Shown here in pieces: positions 15,517-46,439 of a stretch of DNA of 64,000 nt. This DNA comes from Iphione sp. A-MEVVRFRX5. Its lineage: Eukaryota. Every line of letters begins with the position of its first letter. The first letter of the stretch is position 1. Under the pieces are notes generated by a model, which saw nothing but the letters and a program-made list of their open reading frames with translations, was not told the DNA's origin and made no database searches. Location of the stretch: assembly GCA_976226885.1 (NCBI GenBank), contig OZ320317.1, positions 36,084,001-36,148,000 on the forward strand, given 5' to 3'. The position numbers were made by a program, and so were the translations under genes.

Positions 15517-15547
<31 letters not shown>

Positions 15548-17023: not shown

Positions 17024-17665
17024 TTAATAGTGTGGTGTGTCTTTACCTGAGGGAGAATGATCTGTATCCATGGTAACCAAATTTTCTTAAGGAAAGATGC
17101 GATACTGTCATAACCATGGCATCGTAATTCTTCCCACTTTCAAAACAAGAATAAAAGAGAATGTATGTAATTTTTCTTGTTTCAGGATAATTGGTATATG
17201 TGTATGCATATGTGCCCTGAAATCCTGATTTTTTAAAAATCCATATTAACCCCGTACCTTGGTAGATTCTAAAACGTAAAAAGAAAAATTCAATATTTCC
17301 CACCATAATAATGTTATTATATGATTCATTATCCAAATGTGGACACTTGCATTGTGTTTGTACATTTACAAATGTAATTGATGAAAAATATCCAAAGTAG
17401 TAAACCATTCAGAGTGTTGGGGCCACATGTTCCATTCTATTTTTACATGATATTAAGCTTCTTTAAAGATCCCACTCAAGCCCGCATATAGCTTAATAAT
17501 GGGAACATAGAGGCTTATGATGGGTAGTCTCCTTATCCACTCCGCCCACATGTAGTAGAGGGGTGAGAACAACTGATGTGCGAATCCTTTTTGAGGTTTT
17601 CACATCATTTCTGTTTTAATCTTTATCAGTATGCAAGAATGATGTGCTAAGGGCCAGAGCAGCTT

Positions 17666-18999: not shown

Positions 19000-20229
19000 A
19001 GCTTGAAGGACATTTATACATGAAGTTATGATACGAATATTCATCATTATTTTTTGGCCAGATACTGCAGTAACAGAGGTTAAAGGGAATGTATCAATCA
19101 TTTGCGTGACAATTTCAATGATATGATCTGACGTTTTTATGTTACCCGATCAAATACATGCACTACCTATAGAAATTAAATAATCCAAAAGAGAAATTCA
19201 AACCAAAAATAGAGGACTTTCAAATGAACACCATTGTACCAAAATTGGAAACGAGGATCCCTTAATATTATAACTGTGCTGTATTCCACAGAAATAGGCA
19301 AATTTACATTTCGATAGGACTATGTGACAGTTGTCAATGGCTGTTACTACCACAATGAAGACTGAAAACAGAATTTAAGAAAATGCAGTGCAGATATACC
19401 AGTTCTAAGCTTAATGCTTAATGGTACAGTGGAATTTATTACGAAGGATGTCTTTAAACAGGCCAACTTTTGCATTTTGGTCAAATATACGGCTGCCTTA
19501 ACTAGAGCGGACACGTGTTTCTCACAACAGCAACATTGCAAATAAGTGAAGGTGGTTGTAGAATCTGCTCAGAGATCAGGGAAAGTGTTAGCATTTATCA
19601 CTAACCCATGAGACAAACCAGAGTGCCAAGTAGCAGTGGCTGACAAATGCCATCATGAACGGGAGGTTGCTCGCAGATCAAAGAGATTTCTGATTGCTTC
19701 ATTCCCACACTTTTTCCTGGCCTTCTTACACCTCCCTAGCTGGCCTTCTTACACCTCCCTTTCTTGCCCTCTAGCCGCATATGTCCTTGTAACGTGAACG
19801 AACGGGACGGTTTGCTGGTTGCAGAGTATACATGTGGAAACAGCCGAGTAAATCAAACGCAAAGAGTCATTTTCCAGCGCAAAATCAAGTGCTTGAAACA
19901 ATTCCTCATACAGAGTTTGTTTTTTGTCAGGGGAGGGATCTGTGCTGAAGTAGAGCTTAGAGATCTTAGATGATTACTGAAACACATGGTCCCTAAGTTC
20001 TGCCTCCTCTCAGTTTAATGACAAGGTTTCCAGCTCATTCAGACTGCCAGATTCATGAACGTTCTCATATCTGCTAATCTGTGATTCATATTAAACCCCT
20101 AGCTTTTATCTTCGAACTGGAGATGAAAGACAGGCTTGCAGAGTTAGAAGACCTAAAAACTCTATAGGAAGCATCTAGATTTCATTTCACTAGTTGACAA
20201 GACTGAAGCACTGTCTAGGAAGCTTCTAT

Positions 20230-23122: not shown

Positions 23123-23136
23123 GTTGCCATGGCAAC
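23123..23136. promoter_or_regulatory. Perfect RFX X-box (copy B)
   Basis: GTTGCCATGGCAAC, identical to copy A. Confidence 0.5.
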
Positions 23137-26100
23137 ACCGTCGAGCTCGTGTCACCTGGATACCGTAGTGGTGGCGTTTGCAAACCTCTTTCCTCCCTTC
23201 AACCTGCCAGTCTAGGAACGCGGACCTTGCACGTGAGACCTCCGATTACTGCATTGTTAAAAAGGAGGGGTCCCAGTATTCCAGGCACACTGCTCGTGCT
23301 AACAAACCGTTTCAGCCAAACAGGGCAAAAATTATCCCAAGTCTTAAAGCAGTCAAATGTGCTGGTTAGTTATCAGGTTGCTTGCCCCCGCCCCCCATCG
23401 ATTCCAACATCAGCCAAGGTAACAACAAAAGTTTTAAAAAAAAACCCACACAAGTCTCCTTTTTTCCAGATATGTGGTATTTATGACCAGTGGATAGCCA
23501 CAATGTTTAAAGGTAACTGTTTTAGTCTAAAAATATACGGCTACATGTATCCCCAACATTGTTCTGAGGCAGTATCGGAAAGGAATGTTATGCACATAGT
23601 TGGAGTCCTTAATAAAACACTTGAAGAACTGCTTATTACTTTTTGTTAAGCTTTTCCACATTACTGTTTTCCCTGCCTCAGCCACCATCCTTGGAAATGC
23701 ATACCAAGATCGCGGCTAACACCCATTCTAATAGTACAGACCATTAAGGCGTCGGACAACTGATGCTAGGACCCTTCATATTCCCAATGCTGATATGTAT
23801 GATCTAATATCGGCTATAATTAGTACCTCTGCATAAGAATTTAGGAGCTTGGCATTCTTTTTTTAGCGGATTACTGTTGCTAAGGTCAGCTGCAGCTGAA
23901 CACCTTTACGCCGCCCTAAAATAATGCTTGATGAAGGGAAGTGAGCAAAACCTTGAAAGCATACACTCCGTATATATTATACATCATTATTATACGAGAT
24001 GACACTGCTCTGTGAAAATTGTATTATGCAGAAATAACACCGCTCTGTGAAAATGATATCCGCATTTATTTCATACTGTTTGATACCCAGAGGACACCAC
24101 TGTGACAAGGGCGAACAATTCCCTTTTCACATGACTCTGCCTCGCAAAGGTATGCCTGAGCAAACGTTTTCGTTGTAGCATCAGCGGAGAAAGGATTACA
24201 TGTACTCTCTAGCCAATACAGTACTAACATCTCACAAATTAAATTTTTGTAACTAACTTAAATGGACAGGGTCAGGAATGGATCGTGAGAAGATATTGTT
24301 TATTGGTAGTTTGTGCATTCACTACATGAAACACTAGTGACCGACTGACACACACACACATACACAGTCTCACACTCACACACACACTCACTTCCTCCCC
24401 TCCCCTTCGTCACGTTTGTCCCTATACTTGTGCCCTATTCCATAGTCTCCCACCATTTGTCTCCCACCACTTCTTTATTTTGTTGGTAATCCAAATTAAA
24501 ACCAGTATTGATGTAAACTTATCTAATGGTCCATCCCTATACATGTACATGTTTAAACCTTCTGATTTTCTTTCTCCATTATCAAGGCACTACCTGAACG
24601 ATAAACACAACAGACCTCAGTCGCGTTATTCGATCAGGAGGTGCTCCCATACATGAGCAGGTACAGGATATAGCCCTCTCAAGCTGCGCCCCTAGACATG
24701 ATAACACAAAAGTGTCTGGCCTCAAACTCAATACAAGAAGCTGATCTGAGATAACCTGGGCGCTGACAGAACACTCATTTGACCTCGAAATCCAGGCACA
24801 ATGCCGCAGGGCCATCTTCCTGTGTCTGCAGGTATTCAATATAGAAACAAATGCAGCAGTAAACCAAGTAACAGTAACTAATGTCAGGTATAATGTTTTA
24901 ATGTAAAGTCAAAAGATACAGGAAAGTCTATTACTCCAAATGTGAACATGCTACCATTTGTACATGTACAGACAACATGTCGTCGTTTTGTTAGTTCCGT
25001 ATGATATTCACCATAATTCTTAAATGGGGCGGTTCCATGACACTAATTAAACCCATATATCATATATGGAATATACTCTCAGAGTCCCATTGAGGGACAA
25101 TTGTGAAATGCTGGAATTATTAAGCAGGAAATCAAAGATACAGATACTAGAAGATGATGTACTGTATCCTGTAGGTACTCCCTGTTACACTTCTGCAAGA
25201 ATTCTGACATGTAAATCATTTTTTTATTCATCCAAAAAAAAAGGGATAAATAGGGCTATGCGGAAGTAGGGCAGATGAGACGGCGATCGATATGGATGAC
25301 ACTGATATTTAGGTCGAGACTGGCGGCGAGAGCACAAGCGAGCATGGTACACGGCGCTATGCGTCAGCCTCCTTTCAGACGAGCAAACCCGTTTACAATC
25401 TAGACCGAACGTGGGCCATAGAGAGGCCCCAGGCTACTTTACCGCTGCCGCACTTGGGCATGCTATGCATAGGCACAGTGGCTACGTGACTCTAGTTCAT
25501 GTTGTGCTCATGTTCAAGTACGTGGGACACACATGGACAGGTAAATAACGCTACATATGCGGATAGACAAGAGACCACTGCGCCGTTTCTGCCCAGTGTT
25601 CTCCACGGGGGCTGGGGAAAACCCTACTTTTCTGGGTGTACGAGCTACAAGTCTGAACTGCAGTCCATGCATATTTGGATACAGTATTCATTAATGCAGA
25701 TGTATAACATTCTTATAAAAATGCATCTAAATTGCACAGGTATTTCCCTATGCGTACGTTTTAAACGTATATATCCCATATACGCATCATCCTGTTTTCT
25801 TGCCTGATTTAACCTGACTGACTCCACTGACTGTAAGTAAATCCTATCGCCAGGACGAACGGCCAAGCTGTTCCCCCGGTGGAAAGATGCACACCTGTAC
25901 AACAATGGCGACTACGACCCACTGTCTCAGTCGGTTACCTACCCGAATGCGATCCGGGCAGCAGAGTGCAAAACGGTGAATGTATACAGCCAACAGTAAA
26001 ATCTGAGTAGAAGCTACATGTTAACAAAACCATCAAGTGCATCAGTTAGAACTAGTTGTTATTGCTGTGGGCTAAGTTGTACTATTGGGCTGAATGGGAA

Positions 26101-26983
26101 AGGGATAGAATACATTGAAAATATTATTGCTAAAGATTGTCATATAAAAAAGGTACCTTCTAAATTTCTTATGAATAACACTAGAGCGAAAAATCACACA
26201 TGCTTCAGTTCCTATCTCTATAAAATATGCACATGGTCAACAAGCTTCTTAGGGTCTTTCCATGTAGAGCCATTTTGTCTGGGGTTTCATTCGTAAATGT
26301 CTATTTCCACACTTTTAGGTGGTGAGAAGACAGGCCTCGTTTACCGCAGGGTATCTACTTAAAAAAAAAAAAAAAAACCTACATGATAAGCACACAGGTG
26401 GTGGGGAGACTTTCTCAACGTGGAGAGGATCCGGAGTACATTTTCCCGCCAGCAAAACCGGGCTTGTGGTCGAGCGCTCTCCCATATCAGCGGTCACGTA
26501 GGCGTTACCTGGCGCCGACATGGCATGATTTCATGGTGTCTTGTACGTTATTTCCCTAAGAGGTACTTGCCCGCTCTATACCACTGACAGCCACTTTTTA
26601 CATTTTAATTTCACTTCAATTATTTTTAGGTGGGAAGGCGAAGAAAATGTCATGAGAATTGTTTGCAAGTCATGCTGCTGCTCAGGATATACAGTTCGAA
26701 CTTCTTCTATGGCAATACTTGTAAACTAGCGCCGATCTGTGTCAAATAAAGCTCATCTTCAACGCGGTGCTCAAACTGACCATTATGTATATCACGTAGT
26801 ATGGTGGTAGTCACATTCGTGCTCTACGAAAGAACGTTATAGACATTTCTGTAGAGAAACCCAAAACAGATCATTTTCATTTCATTGTGTCTTTTACCAG
26901 GAACTAGATATTCCCTATCGCATGACAGTCATGTTCCCCTGACTTCTGCATTTCAAGGGCAAATTTTGTACCACAACTCTTTA

Positions 26984-27856
26984 GACTCATTCTCAGTTAA
27001 GTCTGGCGTTTGGGGGTATGCACATGACAACAAAAATTCTCTTCTCAACATTTCATATTGATTTTCCAAAAGAAGACATGCAATGGAACATATTTTCAGT
27101 TAATTAGAACTCGGGCCATAGAAAAAAATTTTCCCACTATATTTCTCATATGTACATTGATGATTATGATGTAAATGACACATGATGTAAATGACAAAAA
27201 GCTATTAGCATTTTAGTTGTATTCTTCATCTCTGCTACAGGGGACCATTGCTTACTAATGATATGGCCATGACGTAAATGACAGCATTAAAAATACTGTC
27301 TGACACTGAAATGGTTATGATTAGCTGTCAATTAACATAAATGGACAGATTGTTTTAGTAAAGGTTTTTTCATGAAGAACCCCCAAATGCCAAATAACAG
27401 ATATAAACATTATACCTTCAGATTTCCTTTTTATTACTCATGATTTTCCTCATCATGATGTAAATGACAGTAAAACCACAGACATTAAACATTATTACAA
27501 AACTCAAATTTGGTAGGTACTATGATTGAAAGTTTTAAAATATGTTATTGACAGTTGTTAAATCTCTGTTAGGAACACCCTAAAATCCATTAGATAATGC
27601 ATTTGCAAACACTGTAGTATCTAAAATATATACATGCAATGCCTAAGACACACTGGTATTGTTGTACTGTATATATTCAAAATGATATTACTAAATATTA
27701 ATCAACATTTCTCTGGTACAATTGTACATCATATTAAGGAAAATCATGTCAGGAATCTGAAACTACCATCTGTTTTAATGGCAATATAAAATACAAGTCT
27801 TCACAGGAAAACAATGTCTAAGACATCGAATAGCCAGACTTAACTGAGAATGTATC
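26984..27856. mobile_element. Kolobok-like non-autonomous element (copy B)
   Basis: Same TIRs and flanks as 16151-17023. Confidence 0.6.
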
Positions 27857-30800
27857 TTAATAGTGTGGTATGTCTTTACCTGAGGGAGAATGATCTGTAT
27901 CCATAACCAAATTTTCTTAAGGAAAGATGCGATACTGTCATAACCATGGCATCGTAATTCTTCCCACTTTCAAAACAAGAATAAAAGAGAATGTATGTAA
28001 TTTTTCTTGTTTCAGGATAATTGGTATATGTGTATGCATATGTGCCCTGAAATCCTGATTTTTTAAAAAATCCATATTAACCCCGTACCTTGGTAGATTC
28101 TAAAACGTAAAAAGAAAAATTCAATATTTCCCACCATAATAATGTTATTATATGATTCATTATCCAAATGTGGACACTTGCATTGTGTTTGTACATTTAC
28201 AAATGTAATTGATTTTTATGTGTAGTCTATTTCATCAGATTCCTATTATTGATGAAAAATATCCAAAGTAGTAAACCATTCAGAGTGTTGGGACCACATG
28301 TTCCATTCGATTTTTACATGATATTGAGCTTCTTTAAAGATCCCACTCAAGCCCGCATATAGCTAAATAATGGGAACATAGAGGCTTATGATGGGTAGTC
28401 TCCTTATCCACTCCGCCCACATGTAGTAAAGGGATGAGAACAACTGATGTGCGAATCCTTTTTGAGGTTTTCACATCATTTCTGTTTTAATCTTTATCAG
28501 TTTGCAAGAATGATGTGCTAAGGACCAGAGCAGCTTGAAGGACATTTATACATGAAGTTATGATACGAATATTCATCATTATTTTTTGGCCAGATACTGC
28601 AGTAACAGAGGTTAAAGGGAATGTATCAAGCATTTGCGTGACAATTTCAATGATATGATCTGACGTTTTTATGTTACCCGACCAAATACATGCACTACCT
28701 ATAGAAATTAAATAATCCAAACGAGAAATTCAAACCAAAAATAAAGGACTTTCAAATGGACCACTGTACTAAAATTGGAAACGAGGATCCTTTAATATTA
28801 TAACTGTGCTGTATTCCACGGAAATAGGCAAATTTACATTTCGATAGGACTATGTGACAGTTGTCAATGGCTGTTACTACCACAATGAAGACTGAAAACA
28901 GAATTTAAGAAAATGCAGTGCAGATATACCAGTTCTAAGCTTAATGCTTAATGGTACAGTGGAATTTATTACGAAGGATGTCTTTAAACAGGCCAACTTT
29001 TGCATTTTGGTCAAATATACGGCTGCCTTAACTAGAGCGGACACGTGTTTCTCACAACAGCAACATTGCAAATAAGTGAAGGTGGTTGTAGAATCTGCTC
29101 AGAGATCAGGGAAAGTGTTAGCATTTATCACTAACCCATGAGACAAACCAGAGTGCCAAGTAGCAGTGGCTGACAAATGCCATCATGAACGGGAGGTTGC
29201 TCGCAGATCAAAGAGATTTCTGATTGCTTCATTCCCACACTTTTTCCTGGCCTTCTTACACCTCCCTAGCTGGCCTTCTTACACCTTCCTTTCTTGCCCT
29301 CTAGCCGCATATGTCCTTGTAACGTGAACGAACGGGACGGTTTGCTGGTTGCAGAGTATACATGTGGAAACAGCCGAGTAAATCAAACGCAAAGAGTCAT
29401 TTTCCAGCGCAAAATCAAGTGCTTGAAACAATTCCTCATATAGAGTTTGTTTTTTGTCAGGGGAGGGATCTGTGCTGAAGTAGAGCTTAGAGATCTTAGA
29501 TGATTACTGAAACACATGGTCCCTAAGTTCTGCCTCCTCTCAGTTTAATGACAAGGTTTCCAGCTCATTCAGACTGCCAGATTCATGAACGTTCTCATAT
29601 CTGCTAATCTGTGATTCATATTAAACCCCTAGCTGTTATCTTCGAACTGGAGATGAAAGACAGGCTTGCAGGGTTAGAAGACCTAAAAACTCTATAGGAA
29701 GCATCTAGATTTCATTTCACTAGTTGACAAGACTGAAGCACTGTCTAGGAAGCTTCTATATCAGTGTTTACAAGGAAGGAGATGCAGGAAAGTGGCTCGA
29801 ATGATTGCCATCCATCACGGGGAGGTACCAGATGCTGTCTTTGTAGTGGCCATCAGTGTATACTATACACGCTGGCAGTGAGGAAGAAGGAGGAGGAGGA
29901 CCAAGAGATTGATATTTTCGGTATCTGCGTCCGGTGAGGTGAGACGACACTGGCAATAACCATGGTCTTCACTCTCCCACCACCTAATGTCTGCTCTCAC
30001 TTTATGAAATCGATCCCAAAGAAAGATGATCTTTAAGCCCTGGAAATGCAAATGCTGCTTCACTCACTGCCCTCTCCCCCGCCTGGACCAAAGCATCATT
30101 CATTTCAGCCATGTCTTATCTGGGAAAGTACAGGCACAGGTAATGAATGAAGTGGATGAGACAGATGACCTCAAGTCTGTGATGGCAAAGGTGAACGGGC
30201 ATTGGATGATCACTGGATCAGAGACTTCATGAAAAGCCGTGAGGGTCTTCACAGTTGAAAGCTGCTTTGTCTGGTCCAGAATACAACCCTCCACTGAGTT
30301 GACAGAGGATAACGTGGATAACGCAGGAGATGTACAACCTATGGACTTCCTTAAAGGGTATCGACTTGCCTGCAGTCTACATGACCTCAAACGAGAACAA
30401 GGCCATAGTAATATCCACGCCCAGCCTACACTACAGATAAACGGGGAGACTGAGACTATGTCTTCAGAACATCTCAGACCAATATGAAGATAATGAAGAA
30501 ACTCCTCCATAAATGAAGTCTACTACATATGAAGACATCCAGGAGATGGTCACTGTCGTCGAGAACCACTTTCAGAGAACCACTAGTCATCGAGAACTAG
30601 TCATCGAGAACCACTAGTGATCTGAACTAGTTAGAGGGACAGCTCAGAGATCAGCAATGAAGGTTTAGTAAGAGCCACGATCCCTTACAACTCCCTAGAC
30701 AATTCTGCCATTCATACACCATTGGCAAACTCAAAGGCACTCACATATAGCGACTTAGAATTAGATTGTTGATACCTGGACCAATGCCAGGTCCCGAATG

Positions 30801-35600: not shown

Positions 35601-36439
35601 TACGATGTACATATGAACAGTTTAGGCGAGGATGAGAACGTAGGGAGGGGTTCGCGCGAGTGGGAACTGAAGGGGGCAAGCCCATCATTTTCGCTGCTCC
35701 CAGTATGGCCGATCTATGCCACCCACACGGCCTCCGGACTGCCACCGGCCTCTGCTCTATGAGGCATGACAGATCGCTCAACTATGATCTTCTTCGAAAC
35801 CCACTGCAATCCTTCTCACAACAGTGTTCTATTTGTGTGGTTCTTATTGATTGATGTCTAAATTGTTAATAACTGGTAGCAAAACCTCCCAGACGCTTTC
35901 ACTGTTCGTAGTTATGAGATGAAAAAGAGCAGGCTTATAGCAATACATGTTTAGCAGCTATGCTGCACGATCTTTTAAGTGGTACGTCATCATGTAATGG
36001 TATTTTGCTTCACAAATGATATATTTTATTTCCAGTGAGATGCATCCCCAAGGCGTAGGGATGCAAACACGAAGCACAAACGGCCTCAGGTCAATGACCT
36101 CAACGACAACGACCTGGGTGGCCACCTGGCGTTCAAATAAATAACAAACAGTACTAGGGGTCCACCTGGTGATAGACGCATGATCGAAACTACGTCAGTA
36201 TCACCTCGCTATTATCTGGGTTTTTTTTTTTTTCAAGGAAATTAACTATAATGACGATGAATACTCTCCTTCTTCTTCTTCTTCTTCTTCATAAATACCC
36301 CCCCCCCAAGTTCTCTCATCCAAATGTCAGGTAAACGGAAACATAACGAGAGGATTGTAAACTACGCTAAACGGTAAACGTCCCCAATTAAATATTTACG
36401 CCCAAACCTGCCAGTTGCAAAATACACGTACATGTATAT

Positions 36440-36623
36440 TGTAGCGGAGGTACTCCGCAGTTACTAAGGTTCCGCAATTATCTAGTGCTCCGCCACTTAT
36501 GGCTACATGTATATAAGGAGGGTGTGCGGAGAAGTCAGTTCAGTTCTCGTTTTGACGTTGAATAAACAACACCTCTTCTACAAAGACGCCTTTATTGAAA
36601 TATGTTGAGGTCGGGTCGTAACA
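36440..36623 (+). repeat. 5' LTR (184 bp)
   Basis: TGTAGCGG...CGTAACA, identical by eye to 45293-45476. TATATAAGGAG at 36510-36520, AATAAA at 36561-36566. Confidence 0.98.
36444..36531. promoter_or_regulatory. GCGGAG site cluster in LTR U3/TATA region (predicted targets of the element's zinc fingers)
   Basis: GCGGAG at 36444 and 36526, CTCCGC at 36453 and 36488, variant TTCCGC at 36470. The first two form the palindrome GCGGAG-GTA-CTCCGC. Confidence 0.7.
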
Positions 36624-37906
36624 TTGGTGGCAGCGGTGGGATTGTGCCTTTCTCCGAGGCGGAGAATGAGACGTCCCCGCCGGCGGAGTCGGCGCTGGGT
36701 GCGGAGTCCTCCTCGGCGGCGGAACTCGCTGAAGTGGCGGAGACGCCGCTGGATGCGGAGAACGCGAGTGAGTTCCTAGTGGAGGTTCGAGGAGGGGCTA
36801 GGACCGTGCGGCCGAAGGAGGAGACGGAGGCTACCCCGGTCTCACGGAGGAGGGCACTCTCACCCCTTGACGGTGCTGGCGAAGGGATCGTGGTTGGGCG
36901 GTCCGCGACAGCACCACGACCCGGAACGGTAGAGACAGAGGTGAATAGGTTGAGGCGAGAACTCGAAGACCCTGGAAGCGACGAGGACTCGTCTGATGGG
37001 AGGGACTCCTCGAGCGATGAGGAATTGGTGGAAGCCAACCCTACAGAAGACCAGGCAGTACGTGGGTTGATGGACGAGCTGCGGAGGGTGATGGCTCCCG
37101 CCGAGAGGTCACGGCGATCAAGCATCAAGGCCGACACGTTCGATGGCACCACCTCACTACCAGATTTCCTTCACCATTACGAACTGGTTGCGGCGGCAAA
37201 TCGTTGGAATGATCGTGAGAAGGCCTTACAGTTGGGGGTATCCCTGCGGAAGGCGGCGCGGACGGCTTTGAGGAATGCCCAGGTCGACATGGATGAAGAG
37301 GGCGCGTATCAGAAGATTGTCAAGACCTTACAGGACCGCTTCCAGCCAGCCGACCAGACAGACGCTTATATGCAACAACTGAAGTATAGGCGCCAAGGAA
37401 AGAGTGAGAAGTTGGCAGACTTGGCCGATGATGTGGAACGCTTGGTGCGGCTCGCCTATCCAGAAGCAGCAGGCCAATGGAAAGACCGGATGTGCAGGGA
37501 ATATTTCCTGGGGGCGCTCGCCAATGAGAAGGAGAGGAAGTGGGTCACTCAAGCCCGAGTCACCACATTCAGGACCGCACTCTCGGAGGCCCAACTCGCA
37601 GAGTCGTATTACGATAGTAAGAAGGAGCGGAGCCCTCGGAGAGTTCACGCCATCGAAGCCCCTGGGGTTGCCCCCGCGGAAGGAGGTAAGGAGGCAACGT
37701 CTGGTTCCTGGCGACGCATCGAGGAACTGTTGCAACAACTTTTAAAGAAGCAGGAGGAAGTCATCGTCCCCAGGCGACAGAAGAAGAAAGGATGCTTCCT
37801 GTGCGATGACCCGGGACATTTCAAGCGGGACTGTCCGAAGCTGAAGGATGCTACTACCAGTCAAGCAAAGTCGGGAAACGGGGGACCGGCCGCTCCCAAT
37901 CAGTAG
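36602..37906 (+). CDS. gag: Gag (434 aa) with C-terminal CCHC zinc knuckle
   Basis: Capsid-like segment FDGTTSLPDFLHHYELVAAANRW... and CFLCDDPGHFKRDC at 37793-37834. The ATG at 36602 is the first ATG after the predicted TSS and has A at -3. Confidence 0.9.
   Translation: MLRSGRNIGGSGGIVPFSEAENETSPPAESALGAESSSAAELAEVAETPLDAENASEFLVEVRGGARTVRPKEETEATPVSRRRALSPLDGAGEGIVVGRSATAPRPGTVETEVNRLRRELEDPGSDEDSSDGRDSSSDEELVEANPTEDQAVRGLMDELRRVMAPAERSRRSSIKADTFDGTTSLPDFLHHYELVAAANRWNDREKALQLGVSLRKAARTALRNAQVDMDEEGAYQKIVKTLQDRFQPADQTDAYMQQLKYRRQGKSEKLADLADDVERLVRLAYPEAAGQWKDRMCREYFLGALANEKERKWVTQARVTTFRTALSEAQLAESYYDSKKERSPRRVHAIEAPGVAPAEGGKEATSGSWRRIEELLQQLLKKQEEVIVPRRQKKKGCFLCDDPGHFKRDCPKLKDATTSQAKSGNGGPAAPNQ
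36625..36643 (+). other. Primer-binding site complementary to tRNA-Leu 3' end
   Basis: TGGTGGCAGCGGTGGGATT, 1 nt after the LTR; complement of the recalled eukaryotic tRNA-Leu(AAG/UAG) end ...AATCCCACCGCTGCCA-CCA. Confidence 0.85.
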
Positions 37907-37919
37907 AGCGAGCGGCCGG
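37873..37919 (+). other. Programmed -1 ribosomal frameshift signal (gag-pol)
   Basis: G GGA AAC heptamer in the gag frame (37873-37879), 6-nt spacer, perfect 10-bp stem CCGGCCGCTC (37886-37895)/GAGCGGCCGG (37910-37919). The pol frame is -1 and open from 37810. Confidence 0.9.
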
Positions 37920-40900
37920 AGTTTGTGAGAGCCCCTCGACCCTAGAAGAGCACCTGCGTAGGGTGACGGTGGATGACGAAGGTTGGCGGCAAGTCCGGCT
38001 AGATGGCGACCCGGACAGGACGGGACGAGGAATCATCGTGAGCGGCTACGTTCAAGGTCAGAGGATTCAGTGGTTGGTGGACACTGGGGCCTCCCTCACC
38101 TTGCTGAGCGCGCGGAAGGCGGCCACCCTTCGCTTGGGACACCCAGAAGACGTGCCCGGACGAGTGTTGTGTGCGGATGGGAACCCCCTACAGGTGGAGG
38201 GACGCGTGGAGGTAGAGGTGACCCTCGACGGGGTCCGGTTACCGGTAACTGTGTTAGTGGCGAACATCGACTGTGACGGCATACTAGGCATGGACACTCT
38301 CACCCGTTGGAGAGCAGTGTTGGACACCTCTGCCTCTGTCCTACATCTGACGTTGCCCGCGGAAGCGCCTGCGAGAAGTCGATTGGTGAGGTTAGCCGAG
38401 GATACAGCAGTGGAAGGCGGTAGCATAAGTTATGCAGAGGTGACCCTGGAGCCGGGCACGGGTACCGCCGAGGAGGTCCTGGTGGAAGGAGCGGCGGGGT
38501 TTGAGGCCAAGACAGGAGTCCGCGTAGCCAGGTCGCTGTGGGAGGCTGACACCAGTACCGGCTGGGTGCCCGTGTGCAACCCAGGGTGTTCCCGCGTGCG
38601 TTTACGGAAAGGGATGGTGGTCGGACAGACCTCGGCCGTGAAGCTGAGTGCCCCGGAAGATGGACCGACAGAAGAGGTCAAGAGCTGCAAGCCTAGCCCA
38701 GCGGTCGAGCTGTTGAAGTCCAGTCTCCCCGACGAATTGTCGACCTCCGAGAAAGAAGCGATAGGGCAGATGCTGGAACGTTGTCGAGAAGTTTTCCAAG
38801 AAGAAGGAGGGTCGTTGGGACGTACCGACGTGATCGCGCATGGGATAGATACTCAAGGGCACTCCCCTCTTCGCCAGAGAGTGCGACGCCTTCCCCCCCA
38901 GAAGAGGAAGATCGTACAGCAGGAGATTGAGAGTATGATGAAGAAAGGCGTCATCGAACCCTCCACTAGTCCGTGGGCCTCTCCGGTGGTGTTGGTACGG
39001 AAGAAGGACGGCGGGTGGAGGTTTTGTATAGACTACCGCGGCCTGAACCGGGTTACCAAGAAGGACGCGTATCCTTTACCACGAATCGATGACACCTTAG
39101 ACGCTCTACAAGGGGCTACGTACTTCTCAGCCATCGACCTAGCTGCGGGGTACTGGCAAGTGAAGTTAAAGCCCGAAGACCGTGAGAAGACCGCCGTGTG
39201 TACCACCTCCGGATTATTCCAGTTTACCGTGATGCCATTCGGACTGTGTAACGCTCCATCGACGTTCGAGCGACTCATGGAGGCAGTACTTCGGGGGTTG
39301 GTAGGACAAACCTGCCTCGTCTACCTAGATGATGTTATTATCATAGGGAAGGATGTGAACGAGATGGTTGATCACCTTGAAGAAGTGTTCCTTCGGTTAT
39401 CCGCTGCGGGCCTGAAAGTGAAACCCAGTAAATGTCAGCTATTCCGAAGAGAGGTCGCTTACTTGGGACATCTAGTCTCAGCCGAAGGAGTTGGGCCCGA
39501 TCCGGGGAAGATTGCAGCAGTTCAGAAGTGGCCGCGGCCACGGTGTCTAACGGAACTAAGGAGCTTCCTGGGGTTATGCTCCTATTACCGGAGCTTTGTA
39601 AAAGGGTTTGCTATGTTGACTGCTCCCCTGAATGCCCTTCTACAGAAAGAGGCGGAATTCCGTTGGAATAGCGATTGCGAGACGGCGTTTGAAGACTTGA
39701 AGAATCGTCTCACGTCCGCTCCCATTTTAGGATACCCACGGCCCGACGGAAACCTTCATCTGGATACAGACGCCTCGGCCGGGGGCATCGGAGCGGTCCT
39801 TGCCCAGGATCAGGACGGCGTAGAACGGGTGCTCGCTTACGCAAGCCGGACCCTGACGAAGGCTGAGCGCAATTATTGTGTCACACGGAAAGAGCTATTA
39901 GCGGTGGTGTTCGGCTTGAGGAAATTCCGACCGTATTTGGGAGACCAACATGTGACTATTCGCACTGACCACAATTCCCTACGCTGGCTCTGTCAATTCA
40001 AGGAGCCGGAGGGGCAGCTGGCCCGTTGGCTCGAAGAAGTGTATACGTACAACCTCACCATCATTCACCGCCCTGGGCGGAACCATGGTAACGCCGACGG
40101 GTTGTCACGGGTGGAGTGTACACAGTGCGGACGCCGGGAAGTGACCGAGGAGACAGCCCGAGTTGGTTCAGTGCAGTTGGCCGAAGAAACTGGTAGCGCC
40201 CTTCAAGAAGCCCAATACGCCGAGCGGATGTCTAAGGCCCTGTTGCTTGCCCTCCGCGGAGGGGTTGAAGATGAAGAGCTGCCTGCCCCCTGCGATGCAG
40301 AAGAGCGCTGGCTTCTTGGAGAGAGAGCCAGGCTGGTAGAAGATGGTGGCGTCCTCCGTCGGAGATGGGAGAGAGAAGACGGGAGCGTGCTGTTGCAGAC
40401 CTATGTGCCTAGGGCTCTCCGACATCCCATCTGGCAACACGTACACGCTGGGCCGATGGGGGGACATCTGGGGATCAAGAAGACCGAAGGAGCTCTACGC
40501 CTGAGGTACTGTTGGCCCCATTTGCGGAAAGACGTAGAGTGGTGGGGACAGAGTTGTGTGACTTGCCAGCAGGTTAAGGCCCCATCGATCAAACACAGAG
40601 GACCACTACTAGCCCGCCCGGTGGCTGGCCCTTGGGAGTTCGTTGCCGTTGACGTCTGTGGTCCGTTCCCGCAAACGCGTCGAGGGCATCGGTTCATTAT
40701 AGTGGTCGCGGACCATTTTACCAAGTGGGTGGAAGCCTTCCCCACTCCTGACGGCACTGCCGAGACTACAGCCCGAGTACTTCTACAGGAAGTAGTGTGT
40801 CGGTTCGGCCCCCCACGAGCGGTGCATTCAGACCAAGGACGTAATTTCGAGTCAGCAGTGTTTCGGGAACTTCTGCAACTCCTCGGTATTGAGAAGTCCC

Positions 40901-43900
40901 GCACCACACCTTACCACCCACAAAGCGACGGGGTGGTGGAGCGGTTTAACCGAACCCTAGCGAAGATGTTGGCCGCTGTAGTAGATGAAGAACAATCTGA
41001 CTGGGATGAACGAGTTCCTTTCGTGGTTGCAGCATACCGGGCCACCCCCCATTCCAGTACGGGCTTCACCCCGAACTGGTTGATGCTCCACAGAGAGACG
41101 ACACTTCCGGCTGAATTGATGTTCGGTGCACCACCCGGGGAGGTGCCCCCCAGGGGGGAGTTAGTGAGCAGGACACAAGGACGCATCGTCGAGGCCTATC
41201 AGTTGGCGAGGGAGCGTCTCCAGAGATCAGCAGTACGTCAGAAGGATTACTACGACCGGCACGTGCGAAGTCAGACGTTTCAACCAGGGGCATTGGTGTG
41301 GTTGCTCAACCCCACGAAGAAAGTTGGACGTTCCCCGAAGTTAGAGAAGACCTGGCAAGGGCCCTGGATTGTCAGTGAGCGGCTATCAGACGTTGTTTAT
41401 CGTGTGAAGAACGGATCTAAGCAACGAGTAGTACATACAGATTTACTGAAACCTGCATCGCAGCCCCCGAGTGACAACGTCATAGGGGTGGTGAATATGC
41501 TGCGGACACGTAGCCCAGGGGCGCATGTCCCCGAGGGGAGACCACGAGTTGATGTGCAAGGAAGGACGAGAGAGGTCACGACGGGCCTTGTGGGGGGGCA
41601 GGGGGGGCTGAAGGACCCCCGGCCCTCCCCTCGTCTGCCCCTGCCGAGGGTGCATCACCAAACAGGGGGAGGACCGAAACCCCCACCTCGCTGGTATCGT
41701 CGGGACTCTGTGGTCCAAAAGAGAGAAGAACCTCCTCGGGACGCGAGCCGCTGGCTAGAAGGGGAGCGACCTCCCCCACCTTCTCGACGTGGCCCATGTG
41801 GGCCTGTGCGGGAGAATGCGGACCTCCCCACGGAAAGTAGATGGAAACCTCGGACACGCCTGGAAGGAGCATGGGTGAAACTCCTTGCCCCACTCCTTCA
41901 GAGAACTTACCTGGCAGGCATATTATCCAGACAAGGAGGCCGGAGAGGAGGAGATTACAGGTTCGGACGGTTGATGTGGAAGGTAAAGGGATTCAGAAGA
42001 AAGATGGATCAACGGTTAGGAAGCCTCACCACTACCGCGATCTTCGCTGAATTAGGCAGGTTGAACGAGGAACGCTACAGGAGGTCTCAAGCGTGGAAAG
42101 AAACTAATCTTCGTTCTCCGCACCATCGGCGGAGAAGGGCGGAGAATCGAGACGTGGCGGAGATCGAAGCCCAGGCGGCGAACGACACAAGAGCGGAGAA
42201 ACGTCGGCGACGGAGTTCTACCCCAGTGCGAGGAAATAAGAACAGGCGGGGAGAAGAAAACGATTGGAATCGACACGAAACCTTAGCCCATTTTCGGAGA
42301 AAACAACGAGGCGGAGGGTTGCATGATGACGACCCGCCGCTACGGCGGAGAAGCGAAAGCTCGCGTGGCACGAGATTCGAATGGACCAATCAGCGGCCGG
42401 CGGAGACAGGCCAAGGGCTATATAAGGAGAGCGTCGTGCGGGGTACCCTCCCCATTCGACAATTCGATTTCGTGGAATACAGAACTCGTGGCGGAGACAA
42501 AATCGACAGCGGTTCCTGTTTTGGTGCGGAGGGCGACAATTGGCGTGTCCCGACGGCTGCGCAGAAACGATCTTCGCTGGGGACCTTGCGAGGCGGAGAA
42601 TACGAGGGCGGCGGAGACTGGTGCGGAGAATACAGCGACGGCGGAGAATCGGGGACGTGCGGAGTAACAGGCGCCACTATGCCAGACTGCCAGTTTTGCT
42701 GCAGCGACTGTGGCTTGAAGTTCAAGCGCAAGGCCAATCTCATCAGGCACTTCAAGGTCCATGAGAAGAGTGGGTTCGGGCGACGATGCCCCGTGCCTCG
42801 TTGTCAAGGCAAGATATTCAAGAGAAGAGATGACTTCCGTCGTCATCTGCGCCGAGTACATCGAGACTACCCCCCACACTACCTGGCCCTGGGGCAGGAT
42901 GTAGATGTGGAGTTTTTGACGTATCGCCTGGTTGACGGGTCACTACAGGGGATTACTACAGAGGTGCCACCGCAGAGAGCCAGGGAGTTCGCCCGACAGC
43001 AGGAGGACGAGGCCTTCGAACGTGAGAAGGAGGCAGCCATGATGAGGGGAGAGGAGCCGCCGAGAAAGAAGAAGCGCTCGAAAATAGAGGACGATTCTGA
43101 AGACGAGAGTGGCGAGGATGAGGATTCAGAGCCGGACGATGATGACGGGGGAACATCCGCCTCTGGGAGTGGAGCGACGGCGACCCGACCTGCCGGTGAG
43201 AAGAGGTCAAGGGCGTCGTCTAGATCGGAGCCCCAGCCCTCTACTTCATCCTGTGCTGACCCTCAACCGTCCACATCAAGAGGCACAGGAGGGAAGAAGC
43301 GCCCCCCTTCGGCAGCCAGGGGGCGACCCGCAACACCTTCCCCTGGCTCATCCCCGGCGAGCAGCTGCACGCTGCACCCCCCCACAGTGACCAGCACCAG
43401 CGGAGTGGGGACAACACCGTGCAGCCTACCTGCCCCGCCCCGAGTGGCGCGGGCTACCACTACGGCCAGCACCCCCCAGACAGGCGGCATGCATCTCCAG
43501 CTGTGGGGGTTGGACTCTGAGAGCGTGCCCTCCACGCCTGCACTCACCCCTCAACTAGTCGAAGCTGCAAGGGTGAGCGAGTGGCGGCATCATCGTTCGG
43601 CAGAGGACGAAGGAAGAAGACGGCCAGGGTCTGGCACCCCAGCCTCTAGCACGGTCTCTCCGATCACCCCTGGCCGTGGGTGGGATTTATCAGATCCCCG
43701 TCGTCCTCGAGGGAGAGGCCTGGGAAAGAAGACGACGTCGCCAGCCCAGTCTCCCCCCTGGACCAGAAGCCGGGGACCCCCGACCCCTTCCACCCCTATG
43801 TCGGGGGTGTCTTCTAGTTACGCGGGTGCAGCAGAAGAACTGGACCGTCGACTCGAAGAGATGCGCTCCCCTTCGGGACTTTCGCCAGTGCCAGAGAGCG

Positions 43901-44898
43901 AAGAAGAGCGGACTTCCCCCAAGCGAACGGTGTTTTCGGTGACCGAGTCGGAGAGGGATGAGGGAGAAGTTCGCCCAGGAGCACCCAGCCGGGTGGGAGG
44001 CAAGACGTCTGGCGTGCCCGCGGCGGAAGCCCCACCTACACCGGGCGATCCCGACGAGACGGTCCCGAGGGACGGCTGTGGGGCTGCTGCAGGGTCCGCT
44101 AGGGCCCTCCCCCAGTCCCCGACGGTCGACTCCGAGGGCCACCGCGAGCCGCCATCTGAAGAGGCCCCCCCGAGCGGACGCAATTCGCCAGCCGGCAGCG
44201 ATGGAGTCCCACCTGGGGAGGAGGAGGGTGTCCCTCTTCCGCCTGATCAGCCATCCAGGCAACCCCGAGGGACTCCAAGAGAGGCTGGCCCGGACGCTGA
44301 CCCGGGCATCGTGGCGGCCCCGGAGGTTGGAGGCGACGGCAACTTGACAGCGGCTCACGGGTCCTCCCCCGAGAGGGAGGATCAACCTGCTGGGCCACTT
44401 GGCGTAGGGCCCGCCGATGCGGGTCCCACCGACGAGGGCGGCACCGAGGGCGACGAACAAGACATCGCGGATGAGGGCGACCAAGGAGACGCAGGGCCGG
44501 CTGACCAAGGGGCAGGCCCTCAGGCTCCCGCACGACCGCGGTGGCCTACCTGGTCAGTGCAAGAGGAGGACGAGCTCTACACCTGGGCGTATGGGCGAGC
44601 CCTCACAACGACTGAGCGACCCCCGGACGGCTGGCAGTTCTTGTCGGCTGTCACTCGAGTGAGGATGCAGCTCCAGGGGGCGAGGCCCCAAGTGCAGTTT
44701 GATCATCGAGCTGACTTCCGGCAAGTGGAAGAGACCCCCGGACAATCCATCTGGACGTGGTTTAGACTACGGTCCGGCCGGACCCAGGGTCCCCGGATGC
44801 GAGTATCCTATCAGGACGTTAGTGTCTCGGCACGAGACCTAAGGACCTCCACATTGGAGTGTGATGAACTGTTTTGCCAGGAAGAGGTTGGCCAGTAG
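37876..44898 (+). CDS. pol: Pol polyprotein (protease, RT, RNase H, integrase) with about 1140-aa in-frame C-terminal extension; entered by -1 frameshift
   Basis: PR DTG at 38080; RT YLDD at 39322-39333; RH DTDASAGGIG at 39763; IN H-H-C-C at 40444-40566 and D(40651)-D(40831)-35-E(40939); GPY/F-like WQGPW; typical IN end near 41460; no stop until 44896-44898. Confidence 0.93.
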   Translation, partial: KRGTGRSQSVERAAGVCESPSTLEEHLRRVTVDDEGWRQVRLDGDPDRTGRGIIVSGYVQGQRIQWLVDTGASLTLLSARKAATLRLGHPEDVPGRVLCADGNPLQVEGRVEVEVTLDGVRLPVTVLVANIDCDGILGMDTLTRWRAVLDTSASVLHLTLPAEAPARSRLVRLAEDTAVEGGSISYAEVTLEPGTGTAEEVLVEGAAGFEAKTGVRVARSLWEADTSTGWVPVCNPGCSRVRLRKGMVVGQTSAVKLSAPEDGPTEEVKSCKPSPAVELLKSSLPDELSTSEKEAIGQMLERCREVFQEEGGSLGRTDVIAHGIDTQGHSPLRQRVRRLPPQKRKIVQQEIESMMKKGVIEPSTSPWASPVVLVRKKDGGWRFCIDYRGLNRVTKKDAYPLPRIDDTLDALQGATYFSAIDLAAGYWQVKLKPEDREKTAVCTTSGLFQFTVMPFGLCNAPSTFERLMEAVLRGLVGQTCLVYLDDVIIIGKDVNEMVDHLEEVFLRLSAAGLKVKPSKCQLFRREVAYLGHLVSAEGVGPDPGKIAAVQKWPRPRCLTELRSFLGLCSYYRSFVKGFAMLTAPLNALLQKEAEFRWNSDCETAFEDLKNRLTSAPILGYPRPDGNLHLDTDASAGGIGAVLAQDQDGVERVLAYASRTLTKAERNYCVTRKELLAVVFGLRKFRPYLGDQHVTIRTDHNSLRWLCQFKEPEGQLARWLEEVYTYNLTIIHRPGRNHGNADGLSRVECTQCGRREVTEETARVGSVQLAEETGSALQEAQYAERMSKALLLALRGGVEDEELPAPCDAEERWLLGERARLVEDGGVLRRRWEREDGSVLLQTYVPRALRHPIWQHVHAGPMGGHLGIKKTEGALRLRYCWPHLRKDVEWWGQSCVTCQQVKAPSIKHRGPLLARPVAGPWEFVAVDVCGPFPQTRRGHRFIIVVADHFTKWVEAFPTPDGTAETTARVLLQEVVCRFGPPRAVHSDQGRNFESAVFRELLQLLGIEKSRTTPYHPQSDGVVERFNRTLAKMLAAVVDEEQSDWDERVPFVVAAYRATPHSSTGFTPNWLMLHRETTLPAELMFGAPPGEVPPRGELVSRTQGRIVEAYQLARERLQRSAVRQKDYYDRHVRSQTFQPGALVWLLNPTKKVGRSPKLEKTWQGPWIVSERLSDVVYRVKNGSKQRVVHTDLLKPASQPPSDNVIGVVNMLRTRSPGAHVPEGRPRVDVQGRTREVTTGLVGGQGGLKDPRPSPRLPLPRVHHQTGGGPKPPPRWYRRDSVVQKREEPPRDASRWLEGERPPPPSRRGPCGPVRENADLPTESRWKPRTRLEGAWVKLLAPLLQRTYLAGILSRQGGRRGGDYRFGRLMWKVKGFRRKMDQRLGSLTTTAIFAELGRLNEERYRRSQAWKETNLRSPHHRRRRAENRDVAEIEAQAANDTRAEKRRRRSSTPVRGNKNRRGEENDWNRHETLAHFRRKQRGGGLHDDDPPLRRRSESSRGTRFEWTNQRPAETGQGLYKESVVRGTLPIRQFDFVEYRTRGGDKIDSGSCFGAEGDNWRVPTAAQKRSSLGTLRGGEYEGGGDWCGEYSDGGESGTCGVTGATMPDCQFCCSDCGLKFKRKANLIRHFKVHEKSGFGRRCPVPRCQGKIFKRRDDFRRHLRRVHRDYPPHYLALGQDVDVEFLTYRLVDGSLQGITTEVPPQRAREFARQQEDEAFEREKEAAMMRGEEPPRKKKRSKIEDDSEDESGEDEDSEPDDDDGGTSASGSGATATRPAGEKRSRASSRSEPQPSTSSCADPQPSTSRGTGGKKRPPSAARGRPATPSPGSSPASSCTLHPPTVTSTSGVGTTPCSLPAPPRVARATTTASTPQTGGMHLQLWGLDSESVPSTPALTPQLVEAARVSEWRHHRSAEDEGRRRPGSGTPASSTVSPITPGRGWDLSDPRRPRGRGLGKKTTSPAQSPPWTRSRGPPTPSTPMSGVSSSYAGAAEELDRRLEEMRSPSGLSPVPESEEERTSPKRTVFSVTESERDEGEVRPGAPSRVGGKTSGVPAAEAPPTPGDPDETVPRDGCGAAAGSARALPQSPTVDSEGHREPPSEEAPPSGRNSPAGSDGVPPGEEEGVPLPPDQPSRQPRGTPREAGPDADPGIVAAPEVGGDGNLTAAHGSSPEREDQPAGPLGVGPADAGPTDEGGTEGDEQDIADEGDQGDAGPADQGAGPQAPARPRWPTWSVQEEDELYTWAYGRALTTTERPPDGWQFLSAVTRVRMQLQGARPQVQFDHRADFRQVEETPGQSIWTWFRLRSGRTQGPRMRVSYQDVSVSARDLRTSTLECDELFCQEEVGQ
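42129..42664 (+). promoter_or_regulatory. Putative internal promoter with CCAAT box, TATA box and 14 GCGGAG sites
   Basis: CCAATCAG at 42386-42393; TATATAAGGAG at 42419-42429 (same 11-mer as the LTR TATA). GCGGAG at 42129, 42139, 42157, 42193, 42311, 42345, 42400, 42491, 42526, 42593, 42611, 42623, 42641, 42659. Confidence 0.75.
42679..44898 (+). CDS. Putative element-encoded C2H2 zinc-finger transcription factor (739 aa), in frame with pol
   Basis: ATG in GCCACTATG context, the first ATG after the internal TATA. ZF1 CSDC-x3-F-x5-L-x2-H-x3-H (42700-42762); ZF2 CPVPRC-x4-F-x5-F-x2-H-x4-H (42787-42861). NLS-like PPRKKKRSK (43057-43083), acidic tract, long P/S/T/E-rich region, aromatic-rich C-terminal ~120 aa. 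Confidence 0.8.
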   Translation: MPDCQFCCSDCGLKFKRKANLIRHFKVHEKSGFGRRCPVPRCQGKIFKRRDDFRRHLRRVHRDYPPHYLALGQDVDVEFLTYRLVDGSLQGITTEVPPQRAREFARQQEDEAFEREKEAAMMRGEEPPRKKKRSKIEDDSEDESGEDEDSEPDDDDGGTSASGSGATATRPAGEKRSRASSRSEPQPSTSSCADPQPSTSRGTGGKKRPPSAARGRPATPSPGSSPASSCTLHPPTVTSTSGVGTTPCSLPAPPRVARATTTASTPQTGGMHLQLWGLDSESVPSTPALTPQLVEAARVSEWRHHRSAEDEGRRRPGSGTPASSTVSPITPGRGWDLSDPRRPRGRGLGKKTTSPAQSPPWTRSRGPPTPSTPMSGVSSSYAGAAEELDRRLEEMRSPSGLSPVPESEEERTSPKRTVFSVTESERDEGEVRPGAPSRVGGKTSGVPAAEAPPTPGDPDETVPRDGCGAAAGSARALPQSPTVDSEGHREPPSEEAPPSGRNSPAGSDGVPPGEEEGVPLPPDQPSRQPRGTPREAGPDADPGIVAAPEVGGDGNLTAAHGSSPEREDQPAGPLGVGPADAGPTDEGGTEGDEQDIADEGDQGDAGPADQGAGPQAPARPRWPTWSVQEEDELYTWAYGRALTTTERPPDGWQFLSAVTRVRMQLQGARPQVQFDHRADFRQVEETPGQSIWTWFRLRSGRTQGPRMRVSYQDVSVSARDLRTSTLECDELFCQEEVGQ

Positions 44899-45280
44899 CT
44901 TCAGTAAGACTCTTCAAACCGTAAGTTACCTCTAAGATATTGTTTTTAAGAGTGGCTAGTATAGGCCATTGGTCTAGAATTAAACGAGGTCTCGTGCCAT
45001 ATACTTTAGAACTTAGGACAAGAAGGACTTGCATACCGTCGCTTTAGCTATGTGATATTCACTTCAGATTTGAGTAGAATAAGTAACTTAGAGAATAGCA
45101 GTCAAGTACATGACAGAATTGGTTAGCGTGTTACTGCTGTCCAGTTGGACAATTATTTTCTTGCATGGGCCTGCCCAGTCCAAGGTGGGAACCCTCCTTT
45201 TCCCTCCAGGATTATTCTGTGTATGTTAAATCATTACCTACATGTAAGATCGGACTTACTCAGGGACTGAGTTAGATTTT

Positions 45281-45292
45281 AGGAGGGAGTAG
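45281..45292 (+). other. Polypurine tract
   Basis: AGGAGGGAGTAG immediately before the 3' LTR. Confidence 0.9.
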
Positions 45293-45476
45293 TGTAGCGG
45301 AGGTACTCCGCAGTTACTAAGGTTCCGCAATTATCTAGTGCTCCGCCACTTATGGCTACATGTATATAAGGAGGGTGTGCGGAGAAGTCAGTTCAGTTCT
45401 CGTTTTGACGTTGAATAAACAACACCTCTTCTACAAAGACGCCTTTATTGAAATATGTTGAGGTCGGGTCGTAACA
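45293..45476 (+). repeat. 3' LTR (184 bp)
   Basis: Identical by eye to the 5' LTR; AATAAA at 45414-45419. Confidence 0.98.
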
Positions 45477-46439
45477 ATATGAATGTATCCTAACGATCAA
45501 AGCTGAACTAAATAGAGGTGTATTACAGTGTCCTATCTTGCTTGTGAATTTAGTTATTTTCTTTATTCTGGTACCATTTCTTACGTTTCAAAAGGGAAAC
45601 AGGAGGGTACATGCCCACCTCAAACCGTGCGTGTCAGGGACAAACCCCAGTTATCACCCCCAGTCCATGGGTCCATGGGTTCCATGGGTACAAAGAACAG
45701 CTTCAGGAGCCTGGCGTTCACTGCCTACGAAAGGTTTTTGACAGATGCATGAGATGTATTCAGGCATATTTAGAGCATTTCATAGATACGGCTTCGCTGA
45801 AATAAGTGTCCCAGACCAAAGGAATATTCTTGTTGAAAGTATCATTCCCAGTTCATACCACGATAGTGAAATCCCTTGTTCGCCACTTACAGAACAAGAA
45901 CGTTTCATATAGATGCACATAATACGTAGTCTGCTAGAACTTATACCAACAATATGAGTTGTACACAAGGCAATTACATTCGCGCTATTTACTGAGAGTT
46001 AAGTACGCACACCATTAAAAATCTTCCTACAACTCTCTTGCACCGCCTGACAAATTTAGGAATCGATGAGGGGAACCGGGGAGATCCACCTGTATCGATG
46101 TCATTAGTTCATCTTCATTAAGTTGTGGCAGATAGATGAAACCATTGGTCTCACTAGCGATGCGACAACTCAAGCTTCCTACCAAAGCTGTCCATGACTT
46201 TTTTTTCAGGGACAATACCACTAATTCGTGTGTGTCTGGTGTCATCTTCATACAGGAGTTTCATAGGAACAGACTGTCCCCATTTGATAACCCAACCTAC
46301 AACCAGCGGCAGACACAGACGGCCTGACGGAAGGTAAAGTACCATCTACACGGACATGTACTGCATCTTGGAGAGGAAGAGTCAGCCTCGCCACGAGTTG
46401 TTTATACCATGGGCCACGAAGGAGATAAGCAGTACTTAC

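Follow-up and report, generated by a model that had tools for sequence, protein, structure and literature searches.

Structure of the element

Our analysis of a 64,000-nucleotide stretch of Iphione sp. DNA (hereafter, the window) located an intact Ty3/Gypsy LTR retrotransposon, described as young, at positions 36440-45476 (Table 1). Its two LTRs (184 bp each) were identical and flanked by an ATAT target duplication. The assignment to Ty3/Gypsy was based on the paired LTRs, primer-binding site, polypurine tract, and target duplication, and on the domain order of gag followed by PR-RT-RH-IN in Pfam. The primer-binding site is presumably of the tRNA-Leu type. Because pol lies in the -1 frame relative to gag, and considering the GGGAAAC heptamer with its predicted stem (the heptamer is present in sister family B too) and the established biology of Gypsy elements, Gag-Pol is probably produced by -1 frameshifting. 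The 3' open reading frame (ORF) carries C2H2 fingers at its start and low-complexity sequence over the rest, and gave no match to an env family. This layout (LTR-PBS-gag-pol-PPT-LTR, PR-RT-RH-IN, and a 4-bp target duplication) is likewise that of env-less Ty3/Gypsy elements (Metaviridae; 412/17.6/K02A2.6-like Pol); compared with a typical Ty3/Gypsy element, however, Pol extends 1145 residues past IN.

Table 1. Features of the retrotransposon, in window positions
Feature	Position	Strand	Evidence and remarks
5' LTR	36440-36623	+	TATA box, four GCGGAG/CTCCGC sites; ATAT duplication at 36436-36439
Primer-binding site	36625-36642	+	Assigned from sequence
gag frame, stop to stop	36599-37906	+	CCHC knuckle, weak Retrotrans_gag match
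GGGAAAC -1 frameshift heptamer, predicted stem behind (z -2.0)	37873-37879	+	Presumed frameshifting
pol core: protease, RT, RNase H, integrase	37810-41460	+	Ends at p58-type C-terminal module
V-x-x-V, aa 1224-1227, candidate protease site	41479-41490	+	Presumed cleavage
Linker part L1, R/G/P-rich	41461-41838	+	Weak constraint, open
Basic three-helix domain, aa 1344-1427	41839-42090	+	Conserved; matches no known family
Linker part L3, upstream promoter region	42091-42418	+	Eight GCGGAG/CTCCGC sites, CCAAT at 42386; near-neutral protein, open
Internal TATATAAG box and ATG-free leader (L4)	42419-42678	+	Seven GCGGAG sites; presumed promoter activity
Met-Pro start, two C2H2 fingers, conserved post-finger segment	42679-43050	+	
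Low-complexity tail with conserved islands	43051-44535	+	Second V-x-x-V/I at aa 2041-2044 (43930-43941)
Conserved alpha/beta C-terminal domain, then the sole stop of the frame	44536-44898	+	Matches no known family
Polypurine tract	45281-45289	+	Assigned from sequence
3' LTR, same sequence as 5' LTR	45293-45476	+	ATAT duplication at 45477-45480 follows

The pol frame (37810-44898) comprised 2362 codons encoding PR-RT-RH-IN, a linker, two C2H2 fingers, and a tail. Pfam matches to PR, RT, RH, and IN fell within aa 77-1215 and those to the C2H2 fingers began at aa 1629, with the linker unmatched; after the post-finger segment came a basic, nuclear localization signal-like run and an acidic run. 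Both position 41461 and the ATG at 42679 lie in the pol phase. The first-pass annotation had described a linker (41461-42678) open for 406 codons, even across promoter motifs, with the other frames interrupted, and this observation of a fused open frame is confirmed: the pol frame had no stop, the remaining forward frames had 12 and 10, the reverse-strand frames had 7, 8, and 7, and the open frame crosses both CCAAT (42386) and TATATAAG (42419). None of 20,000 dinucleotide shuffles of the linker was open (mean, 12.1 stops). Chance openness is thus improbable, as had been proposed, although the rough figure of 1e-5 was too high against a composition estimate of 3.5e-7. The linker, described there as R/G/P-rich, is not low-complexity sequence throughout: aa 1344-1427 constitute a conserved folded domain.

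This domain (84 residues, basic) was about 65% identical between family A, to which the window element belongs, and family B, and was modelled as three helices (pLDDT, 86). It was not detected outside the two families, including in a search of the relative P0287, and a homologue search with aa 1200-1430 returned zero scored matches. A fold search gave no match that rose above background; its best was a membrane transporter (Z, 9.7; rmsd, 2.5; 79 aligned residues), as is usual for helical bundles. The C-terminal domain was 46-49% identical between cassettes with a low dN/dS. Its best fold match was a phage neck-type alpha/beta protein (Z, 7.0; rmsd, 3.7; 98 aligned residues), at background; Foldseek E values were above 1e-3, and one of five models was confident. 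A faint resemblance of this domain to phage neck and tail-terminator folds was seen at background Z. The ESM Atlas yielded nothing usable for either domain, and the modelled structures and fold searches demonstrate neither a known nor a new fold for either of them.

Conservation of the frame among copies

Forty scored DNA matches to the window element were listed (96-100% identical), and the best 30 copies were 99-100% identical, so that these top copies amount to one observation. Among the 29 other near-identical copies returned as loci, the linker contained a stop in one and a frameshift in none. A query with the fingers recovered sister family B at 63-66%, with frames of about 2380-2420 codons. 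Protein identity between A and B was 51% overall, 82-84% over RT-RH, and 64% over IN, and their synonymous sites were near or at saturation. The fusion frame was found conserved in many A copies, in family B, in five finger cassettes (one in A and four in B), and in relatives from other assemblies. A stop before 42679 in other intact copies had been named in advance as evidence against the fusion; such stops do occur, in single copies, and they leave the claim standing.

The alignment used to count such breaks contained 120 of 129 fetched copies (nine degenerate or truncated ones were dropped), in a sampling that favoured best hits. The linker was broken in 40 of the 120 aligned A and B copies versus 28 of 115 for IN. 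In family A, the linker was open in 51 of 72 copies, IN in 49 of 68, and finger and tail in 51 of 70; the corresponding counts for family B were 29 of 48, 38 of 47, and 37 of 48. The excess of broken linkers in B (19 of 48, versus 9 of 47 for IN) was mostly located at two C runs. These runs, 8 and 9 bases long and about 160 and 230 nt past the IN end, are hot spots for slips, which may be either biological or assembly errors. Linker breaks were nearly all private or recurrent, and those found in more than one copy were CpG transitions or C-run slips, considered recurrent rather than inherited since their carriers share 0-2 exclusive variants. The exception was a related pair, L109/L112, with different slips that result in the same frame, and here the break could be copied. 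At about 50.24-50.28 Mb of contig G000:C11, family A was represented by at least six copies or fragments (L002, L007, L008, L014, L015, L051, and L161), nearly identical to one another and lying within 40 kb on both strands, with one LTR flanked by element sequence on either side.

Selection on the open frame

Selection was assessed from non-CpG single-base changes common to at least 2 of 117 copies, with the three oldest dropped; these counts are not fully independent, because the B cassettes have a common backbone, and changes private to the reference were counted as shared. The dN/dS values were 0.11 for IN, 0.43 for L1, 0.04 for aa 1344-1427, 0.83 for L3, 1.04 for L4, and 0.04 for the fingers. 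Over L1, L3, and L4 together, 323 shared changes included 0 stops versus 10.8 expected, and the shared linker indels (114, 18, and 6 nt) were all multiples of 3. Five mutually unalignable leaders, that of A and those of four B cassettes, were all open and in phase, with TATA-to-ATG lengths that all leave a remainder of 2 on division by 3 (260 nt, or 278 nt in a subfamily of A; 371, 296, 392, and 347 nt). The shuffle chance of an open leader was 0.096, 0.042, 0.068, 0.014, and 0.093 per cassette (product, about 4e-7 if independent), and the window leader was open in one additional frame besides that of pol. The absence of stops among 323 changes, the leader phase, and the 3n indels indicate that the frame has been retained where amino acids are free, and we take openness of the linker to be under selection. 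The single frame and its conservation are thus accompanied by selection, which acts on the helical domain and on the fingers and, at positions where the encoded residue is of little consequence, against stops.

These data also bear on a reading in which the open linker arose by chance or is a leftover of recent capture in a young family. The near-identity of the top 30 copies and the stop-poor nature of GCGGAG-rich repeats are what such an origin would leave behind; however, the frame is still open even though synonymous sites have reached saturation, both from A to B and among the B cassettes, none of the shared changes is a stop, and the layout recurs in other assemblies. This reading is scarcely credible, and chance openness was rejected on the saturation with an open frame and the 0 of 323 stops.

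Internal promoter and finger cassettes

CCAAT, GCGGAG, and TATATAAG, as well as their spacing, were conserved at the DNA level within the linker. In family B, an initiator-like CCACTT located 29 nt past the TATA box was also conserved at this level. The leaders were free of ATG in 6 of 6 cases (shuffle chance, 0.01-0.15 each), and Met-Pro opened the finger gene in every cassette. The proposal that the finger protein occurs on its own as well as in the pol product was strengthened and is probable in view of the conserved promoter, ATG-free leaders, Met-Pro start, and separate finger ORFs found in other elements.

Family B consisted of one backbone, mostly 92-100% identical from the LTR to the helical block, which carried four cassettes (L036, L042, L039, and L103) that were about 50-65% identical from the internal TATA box to the 3' UTR and shared one LTR. 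The identity between cassettes fell directly after CCACTT. This pattern resembles what would result from an exchange of cassettes, or from allelic diversity of a regulator maintained over a long time. One hypothesis for the identity step, drawn from its position, is recombination with a subgenomic RNA starting at CCACTT; selection on the promoter could likewise create such a step.

Finger recognition sites and insertion targets

The finger helices R-x-x-N-x-x-R and R-x-D-D-x-x-R were present in all five cassettes. By the Zif268-type recognition code, we take them to predict binding to GCGGAG. GCGGAG/CTCCGC outnumbered every other hexamer across the LTR plus L3-L4, with 22-28 sites per kb in the LTR, 5' leader, L3, and L4 compared with 0.9 in gag-pol; the remaining 55 kb of the window had 16 sites. 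Two of the four LTR sites lay within 25 bp of the LTR 5' end, and most sites were internal. These distributions point at the element itself as the object of the fingers and, because the hexamer is dense in the LTR, make binding of the finger protein to its own LTR plausible.

The first-pass annotation had further suggested that the fused fingers might bind LTR ends or guide integration, and had likened their position to that of the chromodomain of chromoviruses. In 57 flanks (from 60 loci with three dropped, many being the two ends of a single insertion), no GCGGAG/CTCCGC was found within 200 bp, and its density out to 1500 bp was 0-0.4 per kb, similar to the rest of the window. The target 4-mer was TA-centred in all 57 flanks and also in each of the five copies examined from families C and D, whose fingers are not fused, indicating that local target choice belongs to the integrase core. 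Guided integration is thus unsupported over these distances, and local targeting to GCGGAG was rejected on the 0 of 57 flanks. The chromodomain analogy fared poorly as well, with the fingers 406 residues past IN and behind a protease-site-like motif. The position C-terminal to IN and the conserved fusion do suit fingers that direct insertions toward GCGGAG sites of the host or toward a particular type of chromatin; in light of the flanks and of the TA-centred targets shared with unfused elements, we regard such steering as very improbable.

Relatives in other assemblies and unfused families

The RH-IN region was 35-47% identical to the relatives listed, which comprised 120 RH-IN matches of 1299-4134 aa. 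By a strict pattern, C2H2 fingers followed IN in 9 of these 120, with atypical fingers recognized by eye in P0179 and P0237, and 97 of the 120 had fewer than 200 residues past IN. P0179, P0217, P0257, and P0287 shared the layout of the window element (a long basic linker, two fingers, and a low-complexity tail) and grouped with A/B with a support of 0.999 in a tree of 97 sequences and 0.975 in one of 99; 25 partial hits were dropped from these trees, which contain no named reference elements. The fingers of the P0179 family aligned to those of A/B over 81 columns, extending past the fingers, and the tails of A and P0286 showed no significant alignment. Among the members listed, the P0179 cluster had the full-length fusion in 5 of 11 and the P0232 cluster in 8 of 15. 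In a second group of nine members, the linker was short and acidic, and Met-Pro or Met-Ala usually preceded the fingers. A metagenome scan with P0217 returned just two contigs, both short and distant, generic poly-finger proteins filled the results of a profile search based on the finger alignment, and a homologue search with the finger region among longer proteins gave zero scored matches. A search with the P0179 fingers also detected an isolated 150-codon two-finger frame on the reverse strand of L133 (about 5493-5942), with no pol in the 10 kb examined.

The same genome contained two further Gypsy families, C (L135, L140, and L141) and D (L136 and L138), whose elements were intact with near-identical LTR pairs; their placement in the tree had a support of 0.48. 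Similar to the window element, they have an internal TATA box, an LTR motif beside it, and a 3' ORF encoding two C2H2-like fingers that opens with Met-Pro. Unlike the window element, their pol ends after IN, and the finger ORF is separate, lying 2.3-3.1 kb past pol behind the TATA box; every frame of the gap is interrupted, by 17-42 stops each, and the phase varies. BLAST of the C/D finger protein against the A-type finger protein showed no similarity at E 0.5. A motif repeated in the LTR recurred just past the internal TATA box, GGGGTACCCC-like in C and GTTCGTGGTAC in D. This recurrence suggests that C and D follow a self-regulating design like that of the window element, with different specificities. 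Their separate ORFs indicate that a finger gene can naturally stand alone and that elements tolerate a long gap, and, since these elements are intact, that the fusion is dispensable for some elements of this kind.

Families C and D also inform the possibility that translation itself is selected, with ribosome passage through the helical domain and promoter region stabilising the RNA by avoiding a premature-stop signal and the finger link being a by-product. L3 and L4, near-neutral at the protein level yet never losing the frame, would follow naturally from it. However, owing to the gag stop at 37906 and the -1 shift, most ribosomes would stop more than 7 kb before the 3' end, and C/D elements with near-identical LTR pairs stop after IN and carry gaps full of stops. 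Translation as the selected trait is therefore quite unlikely; the C/D gaps and the early gag stop weaken decay avoidance in particular, which was rejected as the main cause.

A candidate protease site past the integrase

Only 7 residues past IN, a V-x-x-V motif forms part of a 9-residue island that does not differ between A and B. The stricter form V-x-[AGST]-[VI] occurred three times in 2362 residues, at the RH/IN junction, past IN, and in the tail at aa 2041, where all five cassettes conserve it as an island; the stricter form was also present in the gag CA/NC region of family A, and V-x-x-V/I was present at the RH/IN junction of both A and B. In a study of a Copia-type protease, Ty1 protease sites mainly have Val or Ile at P2 and P2' (PMC6952103). 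The motif used here is short and was defined after inspection, and the post-IN motif has a hydrophobic P1, in contrast to the hydrophilic P1 of Ty1 sites. In all 7 long-fusion members, the looser V-x-x-V/I fell within 45 residues past IN, as it did in 6 of the 97 other relatives; in the short-linker finger group, it was present in 1 of 9 members and missing directly past IN in the other 8. In the sister group, Arg tends to be second at both the RH/IN and post-IN junctions. The post-IN motif is a predicted site for the protease of the element.

Taken together, we consider it fairly probable that the finger protein is made both alone and as a Gag-Pol tail, packaged, cut from IN, and bound to GCGGAG. 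In this scenario, -1 frameshifting would yield a Gag-Pol-extension protein that would be packaged together with Gag, and the protease of the element would cut it past IN and again in the tail. Once freed, the finger protein would bind the GCGGAG sites that the new cDNA or provirus carries in its LTRs and internal promoter, and there it might regulate (probably start) transcription or escort the cDNA. Stand-alone finger protein from the internal promoter would provide feedback control in the cell. An uncut IN-linker-finger protein could instead clamp the LTR ends of the element through GCGGAG, or supply a nuclear import signal, at integration. A frame selected as one piece and two of four LTR sites within 25 bp of the LTR 5' end suit an uncut protein, and the cleavage motif is weak evidence, missing as it is in the short-linker group; the junction-type motif 7 residues past IN in an island identical in A/B, the 406 residues of largely free sequence between IN and the fingers, and the internal position of most GCGGAG sites, away from the ends, argue against it. 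On balance, we hold the uncut protein to be unlikely and prefer the released finger protein.

More tentatively, and with rather more doubt than confidence, we propose that a widespread group of animal Gypsy elements may encode their own sequence-specific C2H2 transcription factor, made by two routes (from an internal promoter and as Gag-Pol cargo released by the protease) and delivered by each particle to newly made cDNA, with cassettes swapped at the transcription start site and the frame kept across the promoter at every swap. Such cassettes would have been swapped between lineages as if subgenomic RNAs had been co-packaged and recombined in.

Relation to known systems

Retrotransposons are usually thought to rely on host transcription factors. 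If the released finger protein acts as proposed, an LTR regulator carried in the particles would permit self-restart right after insertion, before silencing, in a manner comparable to virion-delivered viral activators. The foamy virus Tas/Bel1 protein is a DNA-binding regulator expressed from an internal promoter, with sites in that promoter and in the LTR. Should the predicted promoter and binding sites be functional, the finger protein would be its functional analogue in these respects, although the element here has no retroviral env, its regulator is a C2H2 protein, and that protein would be made in Gag-Pol too.

Among elements with a 3' gene, Oikopleura Tor3b/4b use an internal promoter, located within pol in Tor3b, to express env, a membrane glycoprotein (PMC4402516). 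Like Tor3b, the window element has a promoter within its pol frame, here predicted from motifs, but its 3' product, encoded in the same frame as pol, is predicted to bind DNA and is not env. The C. elegans Cer1 protein CERV, an accessory nuclear regulator for the expression of its own element, is translated from a spliced mRNA and acts in the export of genomic RNA (PMC10309623, available text); in contrast to the protein described here, neither C2H2 fingers nor a pol fusion is mentioned for CERV in that text (PMC10309623). Chromoviruses carry a chromodomain at the integrase C-terminus (PMC2774666 and PMC3605345). They are alike in adding a nucleic-acid- or chromatin-reading module to the pol frame past IN. 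The window element differs in that the module consists of C2H2 fingers placed 406 residues away, with their own start codon, a putative promoter, and probable cleavage, and Pfam found no chromodomain in the whole frame or the linker. A C2H2 extension is not mentioned in the available portions of PMC2774666 and PMC6338049. Our literature search, which covered few subscription journals, found no report of a Gypsy pol fused to C2H2 fingers, and such a group of animal elements is apparently undescribed, although it may have been annotated before.

In this element, one stretch of DNA appears to serve as promoter, 5' leader, and coding frame, providing a clean natural case of selection on the frame alone. 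The presence of fused (A/B) and unfused (C/D) families in one genome, and of four cassettes on one backbone, makes the question directly testable. Elsewhere in the window, we observed a local duplication of about 10 kb (approximately 8100-19500 versus 20400-29100; 97-100% identity; spacings, 9.5-12.3 kb) and a G-rich tandem array at 10612-11036 with a 71-bp unit in about six copies.
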